Shown here piece after piece: positions 18,530 to 63,330 of a DNA stretch of 64,000 nt. Each line of letters begins with the position of its first letter. Within the stretch, counting starts at the first letter, position 1. This stretch comes from an uncultured bacterium (GTDB lineage Bacteria; Omnitrophota; Omnitrophia; Omnitrophales; Aquincolibacteriaceae). Below the pieces are notes generated by a model. The model was given only the letters and a program-made list of their open reading frames with translations. It was not told where the DNA came from and did no database searches. Location of the stretch: contig CAYLPP010000003.1 in assembly GCA_964385615.1 (NCBI GenBank), positions 11,288 to 75,287 on the forward strand. Reading direction: 5' to 3'. Both the position numbers and the translations under genes were made by a program.

Positions 18530-19072
18530 CTAGGAACGCACTACATGTGGCCCAACTTCTTTTGGATCATTTGGGTCGTTAATCCGGACTAACTTGCTAT
18601 TCTCATCGAGCATTGTTCGGAATAGAGCTAACTGTCTGGGTTCATCGCCCAAACGGACAACTTCTAATAGACGCCGCAAATGGAAATGCTTTACGATTTC
18701 TACTTCCTGGCTTTCTTTGAGAAAGCTTTGAATAGACTCGGGCAATTCTAACGTCTTTAGGACACGGGCTATATACGACCAGTCTTCACCTGTTATTTCA
18801 GATAATCCCCTGACACTCTTAACACCAGCGGACTGCTGGAGATTGCGGTAAAATTCAGCTTTTTTGAGGGGGAAATTTTCAAGTCGCTTGAGATAGGTCT
18901 GATGTTTTTCCCAGACTCTTTGATTAACAGCTTCCACCGACTCAAGATCTTTGGGGCGTTCCCCGAAAACAAACTGTTGCCGCCGATGTTGGTATTTGCT
19001 ATAAAAAGGCTGTGAGTATTGGAAGATACGCGACTCAAACTGTTGCGTCGCGGGGATCTTCGATGGCCCCAT
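18530..19072 (-). CDS. ParB-like HTH domain protein, copy A of a multi-copy family (3' part of the 506-aa ORF)
   Basis: It shares the WEKHQTYLKRLENFPLKKA and GVKSVRGLSEITGEDWSYIARVLKTLELPESIQSFL blocks with the ORFs at 40120-40815 and 58635-59168. A candidate internal start GGGGAACAAATGGGGCC (ATG at 19072) lies inside the proximal tandem repeat. Confidence 0.55.
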   Translation of the reverse strand: MGPSKIPATQQFESRIFQYSQPFYSKYQHRRQQFVFGERPKDLESVEAVNQRVWEKHQTYLKRLENFPLKKAEFYRNLQQSAGVKSVRGLSEITGEDWSYIARVLKTLELPESIQSFLKESQEVEIVKHFHLRRLLEVVRLGDEPRQLALFRTMLDENSKLVRINDPNDPKEVGPHVVRS

Positions 19073-19156
19073 TTGTTCCCCAGCTGCGAAACTGTGGGAT
19101 TTAAATTGTTGCGTAACAGGGAACTTCGCTGACCCCAATTGTTCCTCTGCTGCGAA
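19037..19156. repeat. two tandem 66-bp repeats upstream/inside copy A
   Basis: Units 19037-19090 and 19103-19156 (...TTGTTGCG..GGGAAC..CCCCA(A/T)TTGTTCC..CTGCGAA). They encode the peptide repeats AAEEQLGSAKFPVTQQFKSHSF and AAGEQMGPSKIPATQQFESRIF. Confidence 0.8.
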
Positions 19157-19159
19157 TCC

Positions 19160-20050
19160 ACAGCCTTCAGTTCCACAAGCTTTTTCGGCTTGAGAAGCGA
19201 CGGAGGCTGAATGGATCTTCGCAGCAGAGGGAACATCCTTGTTCAACGCAACCTCTCCAGATTTATAGGCTTTCGCAGTCGCTTCATTGCAAGCATCGGC
19301 CAATTCAGCCAAAGCGGTATTCCACACTTCGGCATTTTGACCGGCATTAAAAGGGCGTCCAAACAGCCCTATATCCAGCCGCCCAATCCCCTTTTTCTTA
19401 TCAATAATATGACACACAACATAGCTTATGAATCTCGGCAAAAGCATTTTAATTTTATCGGGCTTCCCCTTATACAACCGACAAAAATCCCCGAATAATT
19501 GTAGCGTTTGAATTTGGTCATGCGCGGCACCCGCCTGAGCCCGCTCGGCATTAATTTCCATAGCTATACGCTGCTCCTGTTCAGACAAATCCTTTTCTTC
19601 AATATTTAGAGATTCCAGTTTGTCTTTAACAGAACCCAACTGCGAAATTCCTTTTTCCGCCAATATGTCTACCAGATTAGATACCTGCGTTCTAACATCT
19701 TTGAGTTTTATTTTTACCCGTTCCCAATCTGTCTGTAATTCGTTGATTCTTCCTGCCGTTGACTGATTCGCCGACTGAACCGCATTAGTAATCATTTTGG
19801 AATCGAATTGCAAATTATGAATGAACTCAATAACGGCTCGATCAATTGCCTCAGCGGGCAAATAAATTAATTCGCAATCAATCCCACGTGTTTTATCTGC
19901 CTTCATACATGCATAATAGCGATGAATGTTGCTCCAAGGAAATACCCAAGAATATCCTGGCGGAACACATGAGCAATCCATTCGCCGGAATAAGAAGCTA
20001 ACCCATGATTGAAAATTGTGGCAACAAAAATTCCCGCCATAATGGACCAT
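19160..20050 (-). pseudogene. 5'-truncated large serine recombinase (zinc-ribbon and coiled-coil C-terminal region only), fused in frame to copy A
   Basis: RMDCSCVPPGYSW...RYYACMKADKTRGIDCELIYLPAEAIDRAVIEFI matches the Cx2C...YYxC...C zinc ribbon followed by the I.AE.L..AV helix of large serine recombinases. There is no resolvase catalytic domain upstream, and the frame runs into the UPF0016 gene. Confidence 0.5.
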
Positions 20051-20154
20051 GGCTTTTTAAAGCGTGCGGCCAAAGAAAAGGCTAGAAGCTGGGTTTTATC
20101 TCCCATTTCACTTAAGGCAACGAGAATGAAGGAACTTGCAATGACTTGAATCAT
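19903..20154 (-). CDS. UPF0016 (GDT1/TMEM165) single-repeat membrane protein, possibly truncated
   Basis: EMGDKTQL signature. Only 83 aa, and its 3' 148 nt overlaps the recombinase-remnant frame. Confidence 0.5.
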   Translation of the reverse strand: MIQVIASSFILVALSEMGDKTQLLAFSLAARFKKPWSIMAGIFVATIFNHGLASYSGEWIAHVFRQDILGYFLGATFIAIMHV

Positions 20155-20208
20155 TTAGACTCTTTTTTAAGGTCGAGTCCAAGAAATAATCATACGGCGG
20201 TGATAGTT

Positions 20209-21600
20209 TTATATTTTAAACGTTGTTTGGGTATAAAAGAAATTTGCGTCGTCATTAGCGCCTGTATCTCGTGTAAACGGACCTGCAAAAAAGTGCCCAT
20301 ATCCGATTAAAAGATTGAGGTGTTCTGTTATTTTAATATTGGCTAAGAGATCAAGCTCTTCTCCCAATTGAGTGTTCGCATTTGGATTTGCAGCGCGCAG
20401 GACTCCTCCATTGTCACTGAACCATGGCGATTCCTTAGCATCCAGAAAAAACCAATGAAAATCGGATATGAGTGACAATCGAGAATGAGGCTTAAGTGAA
20501 TTTCCGATCCGAATATCATTTATGTTCTTCAGGCCCACCAAATCCATGAAACCATATTTATCGTGATTGCTTGGGAAAAGATTATCGAATGTATTGAACT
20601 GGCCATCGCTTGGATTCCGGTCTCCTGAAGCGTGATTAAATTCCGCATAAAATCTCGGAGAGGCCCAAACCTTCGCAAAAGTGTAACCTGCTTCCTGATG
20701 GAAAGCCCAAGCCGCAATGCTATCGTGGGCCCGGCTTCCGAACTGAAGCGCATATTCAGTCCCGTAATCAAAATTCCACTTTTTACCTTTGAAGCGATTG
20801 CCCATTGTATATTCTTTTAACTGCCCCAATTCACCCGGACGCTCACCTTGAATTTCATTATTGCGGTCATGCCGAATAAAAAGAAATGTATCTAAAACCT
20901 GATCTTTAAAAGGTTTTAAAGTTGAATACATCCCATAGAGATTATCGTGATGCGCTGCCGTATCTGGTGTATCTTTTCTAACTGAAACCACTTGAGCAAA
21001 AAAAGTATCGAATTGAAACCAATCGCGAGGATGATAGACGGCCTTAACTGCGTCAAAAACGCGCCCGACATTCGACCAATCGGGCGAACCGATAAAACGC
21101 CCGTCACCATAAATCAATTCTTGCCGTCCGACTTTTACCGTCGCCGGTATTTTCTCAAAAGGAGAATCCATTTCTCCAAAGAGCTGCCTGAGATCAAACT
21201 GGTCAGTAAAAGCATTGGTCTTATCAAGGCTGCTCTCGGCAAAGCTGTGGGCCTCCTGCCCCTCTGTAAAAATACGAATCGATTTTGCGTTATCAAACGG
21301 CTTAACTTTCATATCAAGATTCAAACGATTTCTAAAAAGGTTTATCGCATCATCCTCGTAAGTCGAATCATTAAAATTAAAATCGTCCCTGTATTCAAAC
21401 CGGTACCGCGATTCAAGACCCGCCTTCATTTCTATCCTGCCGTTATCAAAGGAGACCGGTTGGACAATGGAGTCTACCCATGACTTTTTTTGAGATCCGA
21501 TTTCTACTGAGGCGAAGGTCTTTGCGCAAAAGGAGATCGTCAGAAAACACAGAAAAATATAAAGAGAAAGTCTTTCGAATAAATCAGTTTTCATAAGCAA
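20209..21600 (-). CDS. alginate export (AlgE-like) family outer-membrane beta-barrel protein
   Basis: Signal peptide, beta-barrel periodicity, a C-terminal aromatic residue and overall similarity to the Alginate_exp family (recalled). Confidence 0.5.
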   Translation of the reverse strand: MLMKTDLFERLSLYIFLCFLTISFCAKTFASVEIGSQKKSWVDSIVQPVSFDNGRIEMKAGLESRYRFEYRDDFNFNDSTYEDDAINLFRNRLNLDMKVKPFDNAKSIRIFTEGQEAHSFAESSLDKTNAFTDQFDLRQLFGEMDSPFEKIPATVKVGRQELIYGDGRFIGSPDWSNVGRVFDAVKAVYHPRDWFQFDTFFAQVVSVRKDTPDTAAHHDNLYGMYSTLKPFKDQVLDTFLFIRHDRNNEIQGERPGELGQLKEYTMGNRFKGKKWNFDYGTEYALQFGSRAHDSIAAWAFHQEAGYTFAKVWASPRFYAEFNHASGDRNPSDGQFNTFDNLFPSNHDKYGFMDLVGLKNINDIRIGNSLKPHSRLSLISDFHWFFLDAKESPWFSDNGGVLRAANPNANTQLGEELDLLANIKITEHLNLLIGYGHFFAGPFTRDTGANDDANFFYTQTTFKI

Positions 21601-31681: not shown

Positions 31682-33016
31682 TCAATTTTGCCGAGGGGAT
31701 TTACCGGATTTCAAATCCGCAACTCTTTTTTTGGCTTCCTCATGGCACCGCTCATACTCTTCCGCATCAATAGTTCTAAATAAGGGAGCCGAAACGTGGA
31801 AGAACCAGCAAGCGGCAGCGGCCAGCCAAAAGAGAGCTGAAACAGCTAAAAACGAAAAGTAAAAAGATGGGAAAAAAACTGAAACGACTCTGAGGACAAG
31901 CGTCGCACCCAGGGCAACCGCAATGGCGCTAAGCGGCCAGGCGTTTTTCTTTAAAGCAGACGACATTCCTCCATGGCTAAAGATCACCATAATCGAAACT
32001 GCAAAGGTCATGAGCGCATAGCCTCCGATAAAAATGACATGCAGCATGGCCGTACGGAAAGAAGGAAAAAACGCAAGCAGCCAATGGCCTAAAAAAACCA
32101 TCCAAAAAGAGGCCCAAAGCAACCGCACAAAAGGATCTTGAACAAGAGGTTTGGGATTGATCGTCCGCGTTGGAATATAAATCGCGCTTACAATAAATGC
32201 CCGCAAGAAGTAAGCTAATTTTGAAAAATCTAATCCTTCTAAAATAAAGCTAAAAAGCAATAGCCCGCCAAGAAACAAATAAGTGAAGACTTTTTTGACG
32301 CGAATGCGCTTCTGGTCCTTTTGATCTCCTACGATAAACTCCGGCTTATAAACACCCATGAGCCTGGGACCAAGGAACGCTCCTACTCCGAGCACGAGTG
32401 ACAAAAGAAACCCCTGGTCCATAAATAATTTTCCTATTTTCAAAAATACGGGCGTCGAAATTACTTTGTGAGTCTCGCGCAAAACCATAAGGGTTCCCGC
32501 AATACCCTGCGCGAGAGCAATCGGAATCCAAATAAACTCAACTGGCGGTTGAACAGAATGGTCTTTTCTCTTAAATCTTTTGAAAGCAAAAATTGCGAGA
32601 GAAATCATCCAGCCCAAAAAACACAATCTCCCCAGCGTCCAATGATTCGAGAGATAAAAAATAGGAATTAAGCCTATCCAGACCAAAAAAATTAAAAGCT
32701 CCACAGCAGATGCTGGAGGAGCTGAAGCAAAGCGAGGCATTGCAGTCAAAAGAAAACCGAGGACAAAAGAACCCATATAGACTTGAATCTGGATCGAGGC
32801 ATGGAAAAGAGCGGAATAATGCGGAATCCACCCCATTGCATAAAAAAACCAGTGGCTAATCCCGAGGACTCCGCCAAGAACCGCGAGAGGAAAAAAAATC
32901 CGGTAAGGTTCTTCTGCGATCCGTTTAAGAATACCGAAACTTTTATTTTGCAATTTTTTTAAAACCGCCTTGGACAAGATAATGGAGCATGCCTGCAAAA
33001 GTAACCGTCCATACAA
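31682..33016 (-). CDS. nnrS: NnrS family heme-copper membrane protein
   Basis: EEPYRIFFPLAVL...HWFFYA N-terminal signature and 12 TM helices. It is a paralog of 53016-54326. Confidence 0.65.
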   Translation of the reverse strand: MYGRLLLQACSIILSKAVLKKLQNKSFGILKRIAEEPYRIFFPLAVLGGVLGISHWFFYAMGWIPHYSALFHASIQIQVYMGSFVLGFLLTAMPRFASAPPASAVELLIFLVWIGLIPIFYLSNHWTLGRLCFLGWMISLAIFAFKRFKRKDHSVQPPVEFIWIPIALAQGIAGTLMVLRETHKVISTPVFLKIGKLFMDQGFLLSLVLGVGAFLGPRLMGVYKPEFIVGDQKDQKRIRVKKVFTYLFLGGLLLFSFILEGLDFSKLAYFLRAFIVSAIYIPTRTINPKPLVQDPFVRLLWASFWMVFLGHWLLAFFPSFRTAMLHVIFIGGYALMTFAVSIMVIFSHGGMSSALKKNAWPLSAIAVALGATLVLRVVSVFFPSFYFSFLAVSALFWLAAAACWFFHVSAPLFRTIDAEEYERCHEEAKKRVADLKSGKSPRQN

Positions 33017-39069: not shown

Positions 39070-39548
39070 CTGTGATGTGCGCCGCAACAAGTCTCATACC
39101 TCTCCGCCGGTATGGTTTCCATCGCAAGAAAAATCTGTGCGGCTTCCCTTTCTGTAATCAATTGATCGATCGCAGGGTAAAGAACCTGCTCTTCTTTATG
39201 ATTATGGGCCTCTAAGATTTCAACGAGCATTTCTTCATCGTCATCACTAGATGGATCGGCTTTTCTGACCTTTTCATGAATACGGTCGAGCAATGCCCCA
39301 ATGCGGCGGTGTTCTTCACGCATCACAAATGTAGGACCGCCTTGGCTGGTGCCGGACTTTTTTTCAAAAAGAGGAAAGAGAACGTCCTCTTCCCAAACAA
39401 TATGCCGTTTGAGCCCTTTAAAGAAGACCTTAAAATGCTGTTTTGCTTCGGGGAAGGATTCTCTTTTAAGCTCTTGAAAACTTGCGAAGGCCGCATCAAG
39501 ACGATTATGATCTGCTTCAAAATATTGAGTAACGATATTTTTTACCAT
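39066..39548 (-). CDS. hemerythrin HHE cation-binding domain protein (NO-stress-type di-iron protein)
   Basis: H..EE..LFP repeats. It is about 70% identical to 50833-51315 and directly downstream of an Rrf2 gene. Confidence 0.7.
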   Translation of the reverse strand: MVKNIVTQYFEADHNRLDAAFASFQELKRESFPEAKQHFKVFFKGLKRHIVWEEDVLFPLFEKKSGTSQGGPTFVMREEHRRIGALLDRIHEKVRKADPSSDDDEEMLVEILEAHNHKEEQVLYPAIDQLITEREAAQIFLAMETIPAERYETCCGAHHR

Positions 39549-40119: not shown

Positions 40120-40647
40120 TTATATTTTGGATAAGAATCCAAGAGAATCGGCTTTTAAGAGGTGGGACTCCACTAACTCATCAAGCATTGTTCGAAATCG
40201 AGCTAACTGGCTGGATTCATCGCCTAAGCGAACAATTTCTAGTAGCCGCCGCAAATGAAACTGTTTTACGATTTCCGCATTCTGATTTTCTTTGAGAAAG
40301 TTTCGAACAGACTCGGGCAGTTCTAACGTCTTAAGAACACGGGCAATGTAAGACCAATCTTCTCCTGTTAATTCTGATAAGGCTCGGACGCTTTTAACTC
40401 CAGTAGTTTCTCGAAGCTTACGGTAATAGGCAGCTTTCTTTAAGGGGAAGTTTTCTATTCTTTTGAGGTACGTCTGGTGCTTTTCCCAGATCCTCTTGTC
40501 GATAGAGTGAACGTCGGTCAAATCTTCCGGGCGCTCTCCAAAAACTATCTGTTGTCGGCGATTGTTGAAGATGCTATAAAACGCTTGGGAAAATTTAAAA
40601 ACACGGGTCTGCGCCTTATTCACGCAGAGTAACCGCGCGGGCCCCAT
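40120..40647 (-). CDS. ParB-like HTH domain protein, copy B (track ORF extends to 40815)
   Basis: Shared blocks with copies A and C. The candidate start GAGGAACAAATGGGGCCC (ATG at 40647) lies inside the proximal tandem repeat. The longer ORF's N-terminus is encoded by repeats and hairpins. Confidence 0.55.
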   Translation of the reverse strand: MGPARLLCVNKAQTRVFKFSQAFYSIFNNRRQQIVFGERPEDLTDVHSIDKRIWEKHQTYLKRIENFPLKKAAYYRKLRETTGVKSVRALSELTGEDWSYIARVLKTLELPESVRNFLKENQNAEIVKQFHLRRLLEIVRLGDESSQLARFRTMLDELVESHLLKADSLGFLSKI

Positions 40648-40735
40648 TTGTTCCTCGCCTGCGAATACGCGAGATTTTAAGCCACTAGAAATATTCGCGT
40701 GGAGTAACTGCGAGGACCCCATTTGTTCTGACGAA
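40621..40735. repeat. two tandem ~65-bp repeats at the 5' end of copy B
   Basis: Units near 40621-40665 and 40694-40735 share ...GAGTAAC.GCG.GG.CCCCATTTGTTC... with the copy A repeats. Confidence 0.75.
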
Positions 40736-40755
40736 CCGAAGGAGTAAAACTCCAC

Positions 40756-40794
40756 GTTTTTGATACGCACTGCTATAGAGTGCGTATCAAAAAC
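40756..40794. promoter_or_regulatory. 16-bp perfect inverted repeat between copy B and the divergent XRE gene (candidate operator)
   Basis: GTTTTTGATACGCACT-GCTATAG-AGTGCGTATCAAAAAC. Confidence 0.45.
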
Positions 40795-40976
40795 ACGGTT
40801 CGTTGAGGGTAACATGAGGACCCGTCAAAAGGGACTAGAACCATAGTAGCAGCTATCTCCGCTTTTCCTCTCCTTTTAGTTAGTCGCCGACAAGTTCGCA
40901 TAAAGTTTCTTAACCTCCGAGCATACCCATGTGACGTCAGCCGGTCGGAGGAAAAGAACGGATATTTGGACTCATA

Positions 40977-41171
40977 GTGAGAAAACTACGAGAGCAGAAG
41001 GGTTTTACCCAGGAATCCTACGCGGATCACCTCGGGATTGACCGCAGCTATGCGGGGCGCATTGAGCGCGGAGAAGCCTCCGTTACCCTGCATAAGATTG
41101 GGCTTATTGCAAAGAGCTTTGGCATGAGCAAGTGGGAACTCCTCAAAGAAGTTGAGAATAAAGCAGTCTAA
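40977..41171 (+). CDS. XRE-family (Cro/CI-type) HTH transcriptional regulator
   Basis: GTG start, then (M)RKLREQKGFTQESYADHLGIDRSYAGRIERGE: a typical XRE HTH of about 64 aa. Confidence 0.65.
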   Translation: MRKLREQKGFTQESYADHLGIDRSYAGRIERGEASVTLHKIGLIAKSFGMSKWELLKEVENKAV

Positions 41172-50832: not shown

Positions 50833-51315
50833 CTAATGATGTCCGCCGCAGCAAGTTTGATAGCGCTCCGCAGGTATGTTTTCCATCGCAAGAAACGCTC
50901 CGGCAACCTCTTCTTCGGACAAGAACTTGTCTATAGCAGGATAAAGCACTTGTTCTTCTTTCTGGTTGTGCCCTGCCAAAATTCCAAGAAGTACTTGCTC
51001 ATCCTCTTCGCTTGAGGAATCCGCTCTGCGCACTTTGTCATGAATGCGCTCAAGAGCAGCTCCGATTTGACGATGCTCTTCACGCATCACAAAAGTCGGT
51101 CCGCCGGCCTTCATACCCGACTTTTGTTCAAATGCGGGGAATAAAACATCTTCTTCCCAGATGATATGGCGCTTGAGGCCGTTGTTGAAGCTTTTAAAAT
51201 AAGCTTTAGCTTCGGCCATGGATTCTTTCTTTTTATTCTGGAATTGTTTAAATAATGAATCCAACCTGCTGTGGTCCGCTTCAAAATATTGAGCAATGGT
51301 ATTTACCGTTTTCAT
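50833..51315 (-). CDS. hemerythrin HHE cation-binding domain protein (paralog of 39066-39548)
   Basis: Same length (160 aa) and roughly 70% identical to 39066-39548. H..EE..LFP motifs. Confidence 0.7.
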   Translation of the reverse strand: MKTVNTIAQYFEADHSRLDSLFKQFQNKKKESMAEAKAYFKSFNNGLKRHIIWEEDVLFPAFEQKSGMKAGGPTFVMREEHRQIGAALERIHDKVRRADSSSEEDEQVLLGILAGHNQKEEQVLYPAIDKFLSEEEVAGAFLAMENIPAERYQTCCGGHH

Positions 51316-53044: not shown

Positions 53045-54326
53045 TATTTCCCGTTGGTTCAAATCGGCAGCCGAAGAACCCTATAGAATTTTCTTTCCTC
53101 TCGGCATCCTGTGGGGAATAGTCGGAATAAGTCATTGGTTCTTTTATGCCCTCAAATGGATTCCCACCTATTCCATGCAGCTTCACTCGGCAATCCAAAT
53201 ATCGGGTTACATGGGTTGTTTCATTGCCGGGTTTCTTTTGACAGCGATGCCCCGGTTTGCTTCAGCGCCGTCCGCTTCTCTGCAAGAATTTTTAACTTTT
53301 TTAGTTTTAGTCAATGCGGCGCCGGTCCTTTACCTACTGCATGAATGGGCCTATGCGCGGTTTTGTTTTGCAACCTGGCTTCTTATGCTCATTTTTTTTG
53401 CCGCCCGTCGATTTCTGAAGGAAAAAAGTGTCGAAATCGAATCGCCGGTCGAGTTCGTATGGATTCCCGCGGCCCTTTTAAATGGCTTATTGGGCGTACT
53501 CTTAATGACAGGAGCCGACGCTCATCTGCTCTCGGGTGCGGCTGGTAAAATAGGAAAACTTTTATCGGAGCAGGGCTTTCTTCTCAGCATTGTTCTTGGT
53601 GTCGGCAGTTTTCTAGGACCGCGGCTCATGGGCACTTTTCGCCCTTCCTTTCAAACCATTCGAGACATAAAAATCCGGAAATCTCAAAGAAGAAATGCTC
53701 TTTACTACCACGCAGCTGCGGCTTTTTGTCTTTTACTGACTTTTTTTCTTGAAGGAACAGGCCGCCTAGGCACCGCTTTCTTTGCGCGCGCATTCATTAT
53801 CGGTTTGATTTATGTTCATTCGCGCACCCTCGTTTTAAAGCCGCCTGCAAAAGATCAATTTGTGAAATTGCTTTGTATTTCGTTTTGGATGATTTTTATC
53901 GGGCATCTCAGCCTCATCTTTTTTCCGGCTTATCGAGCCACTTTGCTGCACGTCACTTTCCTGGGAGGTTATTCTTTAATGACATTTGCCATTGCGACGA
54001 TGGTTATTTTTAGCCATGGCGGACAAATGGCGGATTTAAAACAAGCCATTTGGCAGCTTCCTGCGCTTGGAGCCCTTCTCGCCTTAGCGCTTTGTTTAAG
54101 AATTGCGGCTATTTTCTTTCCGGAATCTTTTTTTACTTTTTTGGGGGCAGCATCTGCATGCTGGCTCTTTGCCGCAGCTTTGTGGCTCATTTTTATATTC
54201 AAACCCATTTTTAAGTTTCCTTCTTCAAAGGAAGAGTTCGAACGCTGCCACGAAGAGGCTAAAGAACGGGTTGCCGCCTTGAGATCCGGGCAGCCGCTCA
54301 ATCAAATAAAACCACAGGAGAGTTAA
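53016..54326 (+). CDS. nnrS: NnrS family protein (second paralog)
   Basis: EEPYRIFFPLGILWGIVGISHWFFYA, TAMPRFASAP and a C-terminal ERCHEEAKERVAALRSGQ block shared with 31682-33016. The start was chosen at an internal ATG; the track ORF starts at 52968. Confidence 0.65.
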   Translation: MAVNFMNVLNISRWFKSAAEEPYRIFFPLGILWGIVGISHWFFYALKWIPTYSMQLHSAIQISGYMGCFIAGFLLTAMPRFASAPSASLQEFLTFLVLVNAAPVLYLLHEWAYARFCFATWLLMLIFFAARRFLKEKSVEIESPVEFVWIPAALLNGLLGVLLMTGADAHLLSGAAGKIGKLLSEQGFLLSIVLGVGSFLGPRLMGTFRPSFQTIRDIKIRKSQRRNALYYHAAAAFCLLLTFFLEGTGRLGTAFFARAFIIGLIYVHSRTLVLKPPAKDQFVKLLCISFWMIFIGHLSLIFFPAYRATLLHVTFLGGYSLMTFAIATMVIFSHGGQMADLKQAIWQLPALGALLALALCLRIAAIFFPESFFTFLGAASACWLFAAALWLIFIFKPIFKFPSSKEEFERCHEEAKERVAALRSGQPLNQIKPQES

Positions 54327-58634: not shown

Positions 58635-59168
58635 TTAAATTTCGGCAAGGGATTTATTCAAATGGCCTTCGAATTCATCAAGCATTGCTCGGAATTGCGC
58701 TAACTGGCTAGGTTCATCCCCCAACCGCACAATTTCTACGAGACGCCTCAAATGGAAATGCTTTACAATTTCTGGCTGCTGGTTATCTTTAAGAAAGCTT
58801 TGAATAGAATCAGGTAATTCCAACGTCTTAAGTACCCGGGCAATAGAAGACCAATCTTCACCTGTAATTTCGGAAAGACCACGAACGCTTTTGATGCCAG
58901 ATGATTCTTGTAGGTCTCGGTAATAAGCAGCCTTTTTCAGGGGGAAGTTTTCGAGCCTTTGTAGATAGGTTTGGTGCTTCTGCCAAACTTTTTGATCGAC
59001 AGTTTCAACATCGCTAAGCTCTTTTGGTCGTTCCCCAAAAATAATCTGCTGGCGGCGATGTTGGTAGATGCTATAGAATGCCTGCGTATACTTAAAAGTA
59101 CGCACCTCGCGTGAATCGTCGAGGGTAAGATAAAGGACCCCATATGTAACCACGAACCCAACCTCCAA
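58635..59168 (-). CDS. ParB-like HTH domain protein, copy C (5' end apparently frameshifted relative to A and B)
   Basis: Shared blocks FKYTQAFYSIYQHRRQQ...LKTLELPDSIQSFLKDNQ...LRRLVEIVRLGDEP. The conserved ATGGGG start element is out of frame here. The predicted Met is encoded by a hairpin. Confidence 0.5.
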   Translation of the reverse strand: MEVGFVVTYGVLYLTLDDSREVRTFKYTQAFYSIYQHRRQQIIFGERPKELSDVETVDQKVWQKHQTYLQRLENFPLKKAAYYRDLQESSGIKSVRGLSEITGEDWSSIARVLKTLELPDSIQSFLKDNQQPEIVKHFHLRRLVEIVRLGDEPSQLAQFRAMLDEFEGHLNKSLAEI

Positions 59169-59583: not shown

Positions 59584-60525
59584 CTAAAAAAGAAAGTTAA
59601 ACAAATATCCCGTAAAAATAATAGCCAGAGTAGTCACGCCAAAAAAAATAGCGATAAGCGGTAATCGTATCACCCTTCTGAGCATGATGGCTTCGGGTAA
59701 GCTTAGCCCCACAATTGCCATGGTAAACGCAAGGGCAGTTCCAATCGGGACTCCTTTTTGGAATAGAACCACGGCAATTGGCACAATCGCCGCGCAGCTG
59801 CCATACATCGGCACACCAAGAAGGGTTGCGATCGGCACAGAAAAAATTCCGGCCTTATTCAGAATCGATTGAATTGCTTCTTGAGGAATGTAATTATGGA
59901 TAATGGCTCCAACTCCGACTCCAACTAATACCCACACCCAGATTTTATGCACGATCGATTTTGCTTCATTCAAGCCGAATGCTATCCGTTTTAACATGCC
60001 TCCGTGGAAAGACTTTTCACTGGCAAGAGTCCCTTCCGTTAAATCAGTCACAAGGTATTTCTCCAAATGCAAGGCACCCAAAATAGCGCCGATCACCACC
60101 CCGATCAATATGCCGCTCAACACATACGCAGCGGTAATTTCACCCCCAAAAAATCCGAGCATCAAAACGATGAGGTATTCATTAATCAACGGCGATGTAA
60201 TTAGAAATGAGAAAGCAACGCCGAGAGGAATCCCAGCCCGGAGAAAGCTGATAAAAATCGGGATTGAGGAACAAGAACAAAAAGGCGTTACAGCCCCAAA
60301 AATCGAAGCATAGAGGTAACTACTCTTCTTCGAACTGAGCCACCCGCGAAGTTTTTGTTGCGGTATGAAGGTTCTTAAAAAACCAATGGCTGTGATCATT
60401 CCAAAAAGAAGCAGTATGATTTTTATTGAATCATAAATAAAAAAATCAACAACTCCGCCCAATTTGGATTCGGGCGTAAACTTCAATACGGAATAAACCA
60501 GCCAATCGACAATTACTTGCAGCAT
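59584..60525 (-). CDS. arsP: DUF318 permease, ArsP-like organoarsenical efflux permease
   Basis: [10 protein letters not shown] motif with the vicinal Cys pair characteristic of ArsP. Eight to ten TM helices. It sits in the ars operon. Confidence 0.65.
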
Positions 60526-60713
60526 GAGCTCGAATCCGAAGCGCTTTTATCATCTCCGCCACAGCACGGTTTACTTTTAGATTTTTCTTCCATTTTTTTA
60601 TCCAGCTTGTCTATAAGATTTCCAAAGAAACCTTTTTTCTTAGGTTTTTCATCCCGCTTCTCTTTTTCCATAAATCCCCCTTCTAAACTTTCTGTTTGAT
60701 CGTCGAAACCCAC
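60513..60713 (-). CDS. small Lys/Glu-rich protein with two vicinal Cys pairs
   Basis: ...[22 protein letters not shown]-terminus. It lies between arsC and arsP and overlaps both. Confidence 0.4.
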
Positions 60714-61120
60714 TTTTCGATCATTTCATTTATTGCATCACGAACCCGGCGCGTTTTATCTAACTTTTCTTCCCAAGTCCCTTGAAAGGACGACGGATCT
60801 TCAAAGCTCCATTGTAATTTCTGCAAAGCCCCCGGGTAAATCGGGCATCTTTCACTACTTGCCTGATCACAAACAGCTATGACATAGTTGTAAGTCCTGC
60901 CTTGTCTGAAGAGATCAAACGCTCCCTGCGTTTTCTTCCCAGAGATATCAATCCCGATTTCATTCATAGCAGCAACAGCAAGAGGATTTAATACTCCGGG
61001 CTCCAAACCAGCGCTTTGCACATCAAAAGCGTCTCCGCCCAAGCGATTAAGAAGTGCCTCTGCCATCTGACTTCTAGCAGAATTATGCACGCAAACAAAC
61101 AGAACTCTGATTTTATCCAT
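60683..61120 (-). CDS. arsC: arsenate reductase ArsC (LMW-PTP/thioredoxin-coupled type)
   Basis: [14 protein letters not shown]-loop and a downstream Cys in [10 protein letters not shown]. Confidence 0.8.
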
Positions 61121-61565
61121 TCGGAATACTCCTTTCGAGATTAGGCGCGAATCGCCCCGTTTGAGCTACCACTTTAAATTTATCCAAGATCAGGTCGCGA
61201 ACTTTTCTGAATTCGCTCAGCACTTCTTCCGTTATTTCCTTATCGTGCGGCGGATCAGGAAAAGGCCAGTGCAAGCGAGTGGTGCCTCCCGGAAAAATTG
61301 GGCAGGATTCTTTGGCGTTATCACACACCGAAATCACATAGTCGATTTTTTGCCCCGTAAATTCGTCAACGTGCTTGGAGCGATGCCCCGAAATATCGAT
61401 CCCGATTTCTTTCATCACCTTAATGGCCGTTTCATTCACCTTGGAAGGTTTGGTTCCGGCGCTAAAGACTTCAAACTTATCGCCTCCATAATGCCTCAAA
61501 ATTCCCTCAGCCATTTGCGACCTGCATGAGTTTCCAGTGCAAAGAATTAAAACTTTTGTTTTCAT
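61113..61565 (-). CDS. arsC: second LMW-PTP-type arsenate reductase paralog
   Basis: [14 protein letters not shown]-loop and [10 protein letters not shown]. The start is MKTKVLIL at 61565. Confidence 0.75.
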
Positions 61566-61566
61566 A

Positions 61567-62628
61567 TCAGCAGCATCCTTTTGTTTTCTTGATTTCCATA
61601 TTGATGAAATACTTTTTTTGAATCCAAAATGCCACATTCACAAGAGCAATCATGGCCGGCACTTCAACCAGGGGGCCAATCACGGCAGTAAACGCCTGGC
61701 CTGAGTTCACACCAAAAACCGCAATAGCCACAGCAATCGCGAGTTCAAAGTTATTGCTCGCCGCAGTAAATGACAGCGTGACGGATTTACCGTAGTCTGC
61801 ACCTGCTTTTTTCCCCATATAAAAACTAATCCCGAACATTACAACGAAATAAATAAGCAGTGGAATCGCGATCCTGACAACGTCCATCGGAATTTGAACA
61901 ATGTAATTCCCCTTCAAACTAAACATAACAACAATCGTAAGAAGAAGCGCAATGAGCGTTATAGGGCTGATTTTTGAGAGGAATTTATTTTCATACCAAT
62001 CATTGCCTTTTATCTTAACGAGACTAAAGCGTGTAAGCATCCCTGCAAAGAATGGAATCCCGAGATAAATAAAAACGCTTTCCGCAATCTGCCCCATGGA
62101 AACATGAACCGTAAAACTTTCGAATCCAAACAGCCGGGGAAGGAACGTAATAAAGAAGTAAGCATAAATACTGTAAAAGAGAATTTGGAAAATACTGTTA
62201 AAAGCCACTAGGCCCGCGGCGTATTCCGTATCCCCGTCTGCAAGTTTGTTCCATACGATCACCATGGCAATACAGCGCGCCAGCCCGATGAGAATCAAAC
62301 CTGTCATATAGGCCGGGTTGTCTCTCAAAAAAAGTATCGCGAGCCCAAACATTAAAACCGGACCAATAATCCAATTTTGAATCAGGCTCAAGGAAAGGAT
62401 TTTCCAGTCTTTGAAAACATCCCCTAATTCTTCATAGCGCACTTTGGCAAGCGGCGGATACATCATCAGGATCAGTCCGATTGCGATGGGAATATTCGTT
62501 GCGCCAACCTGGAAGGAATTGATTACCTTTTCAACGCCGGGAATGAAGTGGCCTATGGACACGCCTAATGCCATTGCGGTGAATATCCAAAGAGTAAGAT
62601 AACGGTCTAAAAACGATAACTTTTTCAT
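61567..62628 (-). CDS. acr3: ACR3 family arsenite efflux transporter
   Basis: Ten TM helices with the GLARCIAM conserved Cys block. Confidence 0.85.
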
Positions 62629-62677
62629 CGCGGCCCTTTCATATTTGTCTATGCAGATATATTAGAATCAAAAAAAA

Positions 62678-63031
62678 TTATTTACTGCAACAAGCTACGA
62701 GTTTCTTTTTCTTGTGATTCAACGCGGAAAGATCCCGGCATAACTCATCCACCTGCGAAGCACTTCCGCATAAGCCCTGAATAAACGGCCGAAAGATCTT
62801 TGCCCCATGCTCGGATAGCCGGTAATACATCCAGAGTCCTTGCTTCCGCCCCACAACAAGACCCGACTTGCGTAAATAGCTGAAGTGCCGTGATACCTTG
62901 GACTGCGGCTCACCGAGAACTCGCATCACATCGCAAACACACAATTCCCCTTCGCTTAGAAGGTTAAGAATCCTGAGCCGCGTTTCGTCAGAAAAAGCCC
63001 TGAATATGCGTTTTGTATCTTTAAGTTTCAT
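62678..63031 (-). CDS. arsR: ArsR/SmtB family metalloregulator
   Basis: ELCVCDV metal site inside a winged helix-turn-helix. Confidence 0.8.
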   Translation of the reverse strand: MKLKDTKRIFRAFSDETRLRILNLLSEGELCVCDVMRVLGEPQSKVSRHFSYLRKSGLVVGRKQGLWMYYRLSEHGAKIFRPFIQGLCGSASQVDELCRDLSALNHKKKKLVACCSK

Positions 63032-63174: not shown

Positions 63175-63330
63175 AAGAGGCGGAAGCAAAGTCCTTAAAA
63201 TCTTCGCAATATGGGACCAATCCTCACCCGTAAGCTCAGATAGTCCCCTGACGCTTTTTACCCCGGTGGATTACGGAGAAATTTTTCACCACGGAATTAT
63301 TCGCGGGGAGTAACCGCAAGGACCCATCTC
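63175..63330 (-). pseudogene. degenerate fragment (copy D) of the ParB-like repeat family
   Basis: 63196-63250 aligns with copy C 58841-58895 (it encodes ...VKSVRGLSELTGEDWS...). 63285-63320 (CGCGGGGAGTAACCGCAAGGACCC) resembles the 5' tandem-repeat unit. There is no intact ORF. Confidence 0.5.

Follow-up and report, generated by a model that had tools for sequence, protein, structure and literature searches.

Introduction

In Dehalococcoides, the ssrA genomic islands (ssrA-GIs), which encode the large serine recombinase (LSR) DsiB, lie in tandem at the 3' end of a small stable-RNA gene (McMurdie et al., 2011; PMC3146451). The tycheposons of Prochlorococcus are cargo-carrying integrative elements found at tRNA genes (Hackl et al., bioRxiv 10.1101/2020.12.28.424599). 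Here we analyzed a 64-kb stretch of contig CAYLPP010000003.1 (hereafter, the window) from an uncultured bacterium of the phylum Omnitrophota, in which a preliminary description had flagged an open reading frame (ORF) of 506 amino acids (18530..20050, minus strand). This ORF is an accidental read-through of four unrelated DNA pieces and not one gene. The pieces can be read as 132 nt from the GDT1 coding sequence, out of its frame, the final 792 nt of an LSR gene, a tandem pair of LSR attachment (att)-type sites, A1 and A2, and an independent gene with a ParB/Noc-type helix-turn-helix (HTH) domain. The account that we favor as a whole, and which we consider probable, is that the composite ORF is the deletion scar of an LSR element that targets tRNA-His, together with a boundary between tandem elements.

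The closest described analogue is the Dehalococcoides ssrA-GIs. There, too, integrative islands stand in tandem at the 3' end of a stable-RNA gene, a CcrB-like LSR has an ORF that overlaps the att site or the RNA gene, with its stop codon beyond the crossover, and islands without an integration module are found beside complete ones, a pattern of accretion. The ssrA-GI module also includes a ParB-domain protein, and its cargo serves accessory metabolism. The differences are that the target is the transfer-messenger RNA there and tRNA-His here, that the ssrA-GIs share a 20-bp direct repeat whereas only a TGGGG(T) core is common here, and that the ParB protein there has the ParBc domain whereas the one here has the HTH DNA-binding domain only. 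In addition, the ParB-like gene lies across the att site from the LSR here, but inside a six-gene module beside the LSR there, no second small serine recombinase is seen here and the phylum here is Omnitrophota. Tycheposons may be considered a looser analogue, in which islands also form by repeated integration, fragmented integrases and partial att sites are left behind and a minority of elements use LSRs. Unlike the family described here, they mostly use tyrosine recombinases and carry replication modules, and no ParB-HTH gene that overlaps attP was described for them.

The intact homologs of the recombinase have the Resolvase, Recombinase and zinc-ribbon architecture of phiC31, Bxb1, A118/LI integrase, TnpX and CcrB. 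As in the large serine integrases of phages and integrative and conjugative elements, the attP-type site is an imperfect palindrome of about 50 bp and the outer motif of the attB-type half-site is 5 bp nearer to the center (PMC3783163), whereas in the window copy of the gene the catalytic and recombinase domains and one half of the zinc ribbon are missing. A recombination directionality factor was not identified for the element family here. Our literature searches found no serine integrase described at tRNA-His, which is an absence of matches and not a proof of novelty. The family is apparently undescribed, and it differs from the known systems in the tRNA-His target, the very short shared core and a ParB-like gene with an HTH domain only that lies across the att site from the LSR and starts inside the site.

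The recombinase remnant

Both ORFs named in the preliminary description exist on the minus strand, the one of 506 amino acids and one of 83 amino acids (19903..20154) that belongs to the GDT1/UPF0016 family, and they overlap by 148 nt. The NCBI gene call for the larger one, P0001 (458 amino acids, 18530-19906, minus strand), starts at M49 with an ATG at 19906, and this start codon overlaps the stop codon of the GDT1 ORF as ATGA. When the 506-aa ORF and P0001 were looked up by exact sequence, no contig matched. The first 44 codons of the 506-aa ORF are GDT1 coding DNA (132 nt) read in the wrong frame. Residues 45-308 align with residues 347-610 of P0002, an LSR of 652 amino acids, with 89% identity over 264 amino acids (BLASTP, E = 2e-172), and P0003 is 71% identical to the LSR part. 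At the nucleotide level, window positions 19126-19918 align with positions 4054-3262 of the metagenome locus L002 with 83% identity (blastn). A profile hidden Markov model (HMM) built from 19 LSR homologs matches the remnant with E = 1.9e-116 over profile positions 345-609. The descent of this segment (19127..19918, minus strand) from an LSR gene is supported by both the 89% identity and the HMM match, and it comprises codons 347-610 of the 652-aa protein, which are its last 40%.

The intact homologs found in the database search are proteins of 589-675 amino acids with Resolvase, Recombinase and Zn_ribbon_recom domains. P0002 and P0003 have these three domains and no ParB domain, and in Pfam and PHROGs P0002 gives the matches of a standard LSR. 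The Recombinase domain (PF07508) occupies residues 220-300 of P0002 and the homology of the remnant begins only at residue 347. The Resolvase catalytic domain (PF00239) is absent from the 506-aa ORF and from the whole window (Pfam and LSR HMM), and the LSR HMM found no N-terminal half of an LSR anywhere in the 64 kb. The remnant keeps the latter half of the zinc ribbon, the part in which the coiled-coil motif of LSRs is found and the C-terminal region, and lacks both the resolvase and Recombinase domains and the rest of the zinc ribbon. With no catalytic serine domain, the remnant therefore cannot recombine DNA. The zinc ribbon itself gives a weak Pfam match (Zn_ribbon_recom, PF13408; E = 0.009, 16.8 bits against a cut-off of 25.3, profile positions 24-57 of 58) and keeps two of its four cysteines (C48 and C59 of the 506-aa ORF, YYAC...IDC). 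The NCBIfam match of the 506-aa ORF to CcrB is also weak (E = 0.0034).

The preliminary description had recognized a large serine recombinase truncated at its 5' end, and this identification holds, since homology is found only from residue 347 of P0002 and no resolvase domain is present in the window. The evidence it had given for the zinc ribbon was misplaced: the stretch RMDCSCVPPGYSW is GDT1 DNA in another frame, as LSR homology starts at residue 45 (nt 19918), and RMDCSC, whose 'DCSC' had been taken for zinc ligands, likewise lies upstream of the joint in out-of-frame GDT1 DNA. It had also spoken of a decayed integrative element. A relic of such an element this appears to be, and "truncated" describes it better than "decayed". 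The remnant has neither a stop codon nor a frameshift. The ratio of nonsynonymous to synonymous substitution rates (dN/dS) between the remnant and the intact L002 gene is 0.064, and it is 0.062 between two intact genes. This low value would mean either that the truncation is recent or that the piece is still under selection.

The truncated GDT1 gene and the joint

The 83-aa ORF is the truncated first gene of a two-gene GDT1/UPF0016 pair. Pfam GDT1 (PF01169) matches its residues 7-79 with E = 1.8e-21 and 76.7 bits, over profile positions 2-73 of 75, which confirms the UPF0016 identity proposed earlier. As in the two-gene bacterial transporters of this family, the EMGDKT motif and one complete repeat are present. 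The closest homolog, P0142, belongs to such a pair: it has 102 amino acids, is 71% identical and is followed, with a 4-nt overlap, by a second GDT1 gene of 87 amino acids. In contrast to these pairs, the window gene is cut and its partner is lost. Twelve GDT1 homologs all run past the window protein, by about 20 amino acids or more, and share there a W-T-L-x-P-D stretch that hardly varies (found in at least 90% of the aligned homologs and missing from the window protein), and most reach the second EMGDKTQ repeat. The earlier suspicion that the UPF0016 C-terminus is not native was therefore correct, the orthologs being longer and their C-terminus not identical. A motif scan and an unfiltered HMM search found no second GDT1 repeat in the window. 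Judging from the sequence, the first GDT1 gene is one that lost about 22 C-terminal codons and whose partner gene is gone. The cut falls in the third predicted membrane helix and, with no partner, the product is presumably non-functional.

Only positions 19919-20154 of this ORF derive from GDT1. The five codons with which it ends (AIMHV), and its stop codon, come from LSR DNA in a different frame. The homology of the LSR part to P0002, P0003, P0017 and L002 always begins at 19918 (blastn, tblastn and BLASTP), and the GDT1 profile match stops at residue 79-80, about nt 19915-19918. Since the two homologies meet at 19918, there is no true gene overlap, and GDT1 DNA meets LSR codon 347 at one sharp breakpoint, the joint 19918/19919. 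The position of this joint is internal to the LSR coding region, and no att-type arms were found at it. It is best read as the endpoint of a deletion or rearrangement and not as an att site. One such event, with endpoints at LSR codon 346/347 and at about GDT1 codon 80, would have removed LSR codons 1-346 and anything upstream of them and, on the other side, the partner gene of the GDT1 pair along with the ~22 codons that ended its first gene. A scan of porin synteny found GDT1 beside homologs of the neighboring alginate-export porin in none of 20 loci, the Omnitrophota relatives are at most 56% identical and the locus before the deletion is not reconstructable.

These results call for two corrections in annotation. 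The 458/506-aa "protein" is a chimera of three genes, and the 83-aa GDT1 protein is a truncated half-transporter. The locus as a whole has the status of a pseudogene-level scar, an ordinary deletion scar of a mobile element.

The att-type sites and the ParB-like gene

Between the LSR remnant and the ParB-like part of the ORF lie two att-type sites on the minus strand. Site A1 (19107..19157) consists of the left arm TTCGCAGCAGAGGAACAAT, the core TGGGG and an inverted right arm, and its start codon is degenerate (TTG). Site A2 (19041..19091) contains the translation start of the ParB-like gene, with its ribosome-binding site and its ATG at 19072. In a direct comparison the two are 66-nt direct repeats with 49 of 66 positions identical. 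The unit can be described as a left arm TTCGCAGC.G.GGAACAA, the core TGGGG and a right arm that repeats the left one imperfectly in inverted orientation, and the same structure precedes the ParB-like genes in L005, L006, L007, L035 and L077. The left arm of the ParB-side sites measures 19 nt and, in nine sites read by hand, the inverted CGAA ends 23 nt past the core, which makes an imperfect palindrome of about 50 bp. The mirrored arms agree at 8.5 of 19 positions, and shuffled arms at 4.9. Within sites, no covariation between the two arms was detected (8.5 vs 8.0 of 19).

The left arm is translated in LSR genes as 'AAEEQMG' ('EEQMG') or as 'VRGRVTNG', by lineage, and in ParB-like genes the site is translated as 'MGPARLLCAN' or 'NGAPLLTLGEP', or sits in the 5' untranslated region. 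Different frames cross the left arm in different lineages, and conservation therefore acts at the DNA level. Tandem Repeats Finder reported nothing at A1/A2 or at the corresponding pair B1/B2 of another copy (only two diverged copies each), and at the gathering threshold of Rfam no family fits the repeat units. The hairpin of the unit was considered as an RNA leader and rejected; it is better described as the right arm of one palindromic site followed by the left arm of the next. A loose regular expression for more att sites in the window was unspecific (12 matches against 4.1 expected).

The ParB-like gene next to A2, copy A (18530..19072, minus strand), encodes 180 amino acids with a probable ParB/Noc-type HTH domain and no CTPase domain. 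Its ATG at 19072 is preceded by GGGGAACAA, which provides it with its own ribosome-binding site. Its N-terminus, MGPSKIPATQQFESRIF, agrees with those of the stand-alone homologs P0034, P0037 and P0066, and the called gene start in L006 (7732) has the same 'GAACAAATGGGG' as A2. A search with the related copy C returned 138 homologs; almost without exception these are stand-alone proteins of 125-240 amino acids. The commonest N-terminus in the family is 'MGPARLLCANN...RVFKFSQPFYSIF', which begins at the ATGGGG core, and the relatives of copy A begin with 'MG[RP]SKIPATQQFESRIFQYSQPFYSKYQ'. The ParB-like part has its own ribosome-binding site and ATG, it belongs to a stand-alone family and between it and the LSR remnant lie two att-type sites; it is therefore a separate gene. 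The two are joined in one frame because LSR genes of this lineage reach the att site without meeting a stop codon, and also because the LSR frame ('GFAAEEQMG') is in phase with the ParB ATG.

The protein family is probably ParB-like, each line of evidence being weak and all of them in agreement. Pfam HTH_ParB matches copy A weakly (E = 0.0017, 18.9 bits against a cut-off of 22.6), and a profile of 50 family members matches Noc in the PDB over the HTH DNA-binding domain (E = 6e-4). In the AlphaFold2 model of copy A, with a mean predicted local distance difference test score (pLDDT) of 82.7, only a short beta-hairpin lies ahead of the helical domain. The top 46 Foldseek matches of this model are all ParB, Noc, KorB or SopB structures, with a best E of only 4.8e-3 and TM-scores of 0.3-0.55. 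The ParB/Srx CTPase domain (ParBc, with the GERRxR motif) has no match in Pfam or NCBIfam, and PHROGs has no match for the ParB-like proteins. In viral contigs no ParB-like relative was found, and a single LSR match was seen at 54% identity.

tRNA-His junctions and tandem loci in relatives

A scan of metagenomes gave 64 loci that encode LSR relatives. In 24 loci, L002 and L003 counted, the LSR gene runs straight into a convergent tRNA-His gene and its ORF ends inside the antisense tRNA. This arrangement, an LSR that abuts an RNA gene with its ORF across the att site, is thus seen in relatives and not in the window itself, where no tRNA gene was found. The two closest intact LSR genes, those of L002 and L003, share their upstream neighbors (L002 103-1978 and L003 566-2411), an NTP_transferase gene and a YhcG/DUF1016 nuclease-like gene, and the same tRNA-His is downstream of both; these common neighbors indicate that the end of the element is conserved between the two genomes.

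In all 20 junctions that were examined (19 distinct sequences) the TTC[GA] of the left arm lies 19 nt before TGGGG, which is the reverse complement of the CCCCA 3' end of tRNA-His, and the GAA of the T-loop ends 18 nt after it; the latter figure is set by tRNA structure, so that the informative numbers are the 19 nt of the left arm and the 23 nt of the ParB-side sites. The anchor is shifted by 1 nt in two of the 20 junctions, which gives 20 and 17. Compared with the half-site on the ParB side, that of the tRNA is 5 bp shorter. It was shown for LSRs that the zinc-ribbon outer motif in an attB half-site is 5 bp nearer to the center than in an attP half-site (PMC3783163). As the difference found here equals this published geometry, the palindromes on the ParB side can be read as attP-type (P-P'). 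Based on the same geometry, the LSR/tRNA-His junctions may represent hybrid (P-B') sites, whose crossover would fall on the final G of TGGGG or just beside it, at the tRNA 3' end.

The order LSR, site, ParB-like gene on one strand was found in four independent loci: L035, L045 and L077, whose LSRs are intact, and this window. In L035, with which L036 is identical in sequence, the LSR and ParB-like ORFs overlap in different frames. In L045 (1221-3740, plus strand) a complete LSR is in frame with a ParB-like domain in an intact ORF of 839 amino acids. L077 (and L083, the same) has a second, distant LSR upstream of the ParB-like gene. The tandem order LSR, ParB-like gene, 9-12 kb of cargo, LSR and tRNA-His is present on Ga0209515_10001383 (which carries L035 and L032) and in L077.

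Some variants of these arrangements were also seen. L045 has a 51-bp palindrome with similar arms and a different center (GCTGCTACCCCATAT), and the LSR sub-family L045-L070 is not beside tRNA-His and should have another target. In L003 (4467-4572), L042 and L073, an 'empty' unit of about 75 nt, made of core, right arm, short spacer and left arm, lies between the LSR gene and tRNA-His and creates two tandem cores. These units resemble the A1/A2 and B1/B2 duplications.

The proposed element and the alternatives

Based on these comparisons, the LSR would belong to a family of integrative elements of Omnitrophota in which it is the last gene, with a frame that continues into the att site, no stop codon coming before it. 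As a rule the chromosomal target would be the 3' end of tRNA-His, where the crossover would fall on the CCCCA end or beside it, and the ParB-like HTH gene would lie on the other side of the attP-type site. An integrated element would then have the form ParB-like gene, cargo, LSR, and tandem integration would give the order found on the two contigs. The LSR remnant, A1/A2 and copy A may then be the boundary of two tandem elements, or equally the circular form of one. Two proposals of the preliminary description do not fit these data. It had placed the insertion of the element into or beside the UPF0016 gene, and the att site of the relatives is at the LSR 3' end against tRNA-His in 20 junctions. 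It had also taken the ParB-like domain for an extension of the integrase or for a module fused to it by deletion, and this domain is a separate gene with 138 homologs and its own ribosome-binding site and ATG.

Several points weigh against this account. The assignment of the sites as functional att sites comes from recurrence and geometry, and among the loci neither an unoccupied tRNA-His attB nor a circular form was recovered. ParB-like genes with no LSR within 10 kb are found at copies B, C and D of the window, twice each in L005 and L006 and once in L007; either the LSR genes were lost very cleanly, or many ParB-headed segments never carried one or were mobilized in trans. The dN/dS of the remnant is equally compatible with ongoing selection on it, and the in-frame ORF of L045 may be a natural fusion in some lineages. 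In addition, the analysis of the source genome covers the 64 kb of the window.

One possible alternative is that the ParB-like genes and their sites are host regulators that serve as secondary landing sites, and that an LSR element integrated before copy A. Seven ParB-like copies with no LSR within 10 kb, set among ordinary accessory operons, and the lack of a ParB-like relative in viral contigs would agree with such a host origin. Yet the half-site on the ParB side has the long, attP-type spacing of 23 nt and not the short, attB-type spacing of 18 nt that is found in tRNA-His. Also, in L077 and on Ga0209515_10001383 a ParB-like gene stands at the far end of a segment that ends with LSR and tRNA-His, and the ParB-like module is conserved together with its upstream region whereas the downstream cargo differs. 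We regard this explanation as unlikely.

Less likely still is that LSR::ParB is a natural functional fusion and that the 458-aa protein is a C-terminal module retained under selection. This is how one could understand the 839-aa ORF of L045, the LSR frame of the P0002/P0003 lineage that is in phase with the ParB ATG, the remnant without stop codon or frameshift and with a dN/dS of 0.064, and the ATGA overlap with the GDT1 stop codon, which could allow translational coupling. However, 24 loci end the LSR frame in antisense tRNA-His without any ParB domain, in L035 the two genes are out of frame, and the linker is an att site that is translated in different frames by lineage. The ParB-like family is overwhelmingly stand-alone, and a search for a resolvase-less homolog of the whole 506-aa protein, which the preliminary description had proposed, found no other LSR-ParB protein of this kind among the homologs.

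A split integrase was considered and rejected as very improbable. In SSV1-type and Mx8 tyrosine integrases, attP is inside the integrase gene, and a similar position within the LSR gene would mean that integration into GDT1 split both genes, in line with a sharp joint at which each gene lacks one half. Against this, the att site of the family is at the LSR 3' end in 20 junctions, there are no att-type arms at 19918, the window contains neither the N-terminal half of the LSR nor the 3' half of GDT1, and intact LSR genes exist in the integrated, tRNA-adjacent form. An assembly chimera at 19918, which the origin of the DNA from a metagenome-assembled genome with multi-copy elements might bring to mind, is the least credible option, as a contig from a separate assembly (Logan contig L001, SRR16481182) is 100% identical over 19726-21290 (1565 nt) and spans the joint, the copies of the repeated module are only 74-77% identical and too divergent to mislead an assembler, and the joint is outside any repeat.

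Possible consequences of the site arrangement

If the deletion scar of a tRNA-His-targeting element is the correct account, it provides an att pair that can be tested, namely the palindrome of about 50 bp before the ParB-HTH gene and the last ~23 nt of tRNA-His with the conserved 19-nt arm. It would also give candidate LSR/att pairs directed at a conserved tRNA end, and a handle for delimiting accessory islands in an uncultivated phylum, Omnitrophota. In the window such islands would include arsenic resistance, molybdenum-cofactor synthesis and a molybdopterin oxidoreductase cluster, and in relatives metal efflux, iron uptake and oxidative-stress genes.

A speculative extension, which we think has little chance of being right, is that the crossover, lying where the LSR frame gives way to the start of the ParB-like gene, rewrites both proteins and so acts as a sensor of the recombination state, and that the segments without an LSR are cassettes mobilized in trans. 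The ribosome-binding site and the A of the ATG of the ParB-like gene would sit in the LSR-side arm. With the element integrated at tRNA-His, the LSR would end in an antisense-tRNA tail and the ParB-like gene would be parted from the LSR-side arm, and in the attP or tandem state the ParB-like gene would regain its start, some lineages making an LSR::ParB fusion (839 amino acids, L045). The cassettes would then form a serine-recombinase analogue of an integron array, anchored at tRNA-His.

Further ParB-like copies and accessory genes

ParB-like homology is found at three more places in the window, 40177-40812, 58674-59108 and 63178-63270, all described here on the minus strand. Copy B (40120..40647) encodes 175 amino acids and is identical to P0036. 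The att-type sites before it (40617..40823) consist of a right-arm remnant, B0 (40797-40823), a hairpin (40756-40794), B1 (40687-40737) and B2 (40617-40667). Copy C (58635..59105, 156 amino acids) is preceded by one att-type site (59108..59158) whose left arm is 5 nt shorter than that of the other sites. Copy D (63178..63327) has an att-type core with right arm (63297-63327) and a ParB-like fragment of 31 codons (63178-63270), and it lies upstream of an ars operon. The LSR HMM and DNA alignment found no LSR-coding remnant upstream of copies B, C and D. The earlier suggestion that these copies are integrase 3' ends left at old attachment sites fails in its first part, and its second part is near the truth, as each copy has an att-type site. 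An integrase relic upstream of copy B, indicated by tblastn (35% over 135 amino acids), was also rejected, since the att units drive the match, stop codons are crossed and the DNA alignment has no LSR homology upstream of the core.

In the site of copy C the TTCG of the left arm is 14 nt and not 19 nt before TGGGG, the spacing expected for an attB-type arm. An attL-type site (B-P') would fit this single case, which is not relied on. The core ATG of this copy is out of frame with the gene, and the start is probably a GTG at 59105, as in the 157-aa homologs P0022 and P0023. Upstream of copy B the 39-nt hairpin is near-perfect, and the B0-hairpin arrangement is kept in L006 at about 1200-1300 despite different cargo, so that no less than 250 nt ahead of the ParB-like gene must belong to the unit that is mobile or conserved. 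Just upstream of the att-type sites of copy B, and divergent from this copy, is a small ORF of the XRE-type HTH kind as read from its translation (…KLREQKGFTQESYADHLGIDRSYAGRIERGEASVTLHKIGLIAKSFGMSKWELLKEVE…; about 40940-41170, plus strand).

Copy B heads an accessory run of 21 kb that ends at the truncated GDT1 gene and the LSR remnant. This run contains genes for Rrf2, hemerythrin, a molybdopterin oxidoreductase with Fer4 and Rieske subunits, NnrS, a multicopper oxidase and an alginate-export porin, as well as genes for molybdenum cofactor (Moco) biosynthesis behind a Moco riboswitch. The riboswitch (Rfam RF01055; 26711-26849, minus strand) scores 47.1 bits against a gathering score of 36 and is directly upstream of a run of MoaA, MoaC/MogA, TauE, MoeA, MoaE and MobA. 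In other genomes, ParB-like genes head catalase/ferritin, TonB, and RND/P-type ATPase metal-efflux modules and an ATP synthase operon with AtpR. The ParB-headed segments without an LSR outnumber those with one.

The ars operon (59584-63031, minus strand) lies between fragment D and copy C in a cassette-like manner. Its five ORFs are read as ArsR, ACR3, two low-molecular-weight ArsC and an ArsP-type permease, the permease being named by Pfam (ArsP_1) and the other four from reading their translations. The window also contains diverged duplicates that are 67-69% identical. One pair is 39073-39540, in the hemerythrin gene, and 50837-51304; the inverted pairs are 32682-32917 with 53070-53305 and 31967-32215 with 53775-54023, the copies at 31967-32917 being in the NnrS gene. 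This sequence similarity suggests that the duplicated segments are paralogous accessory modules.

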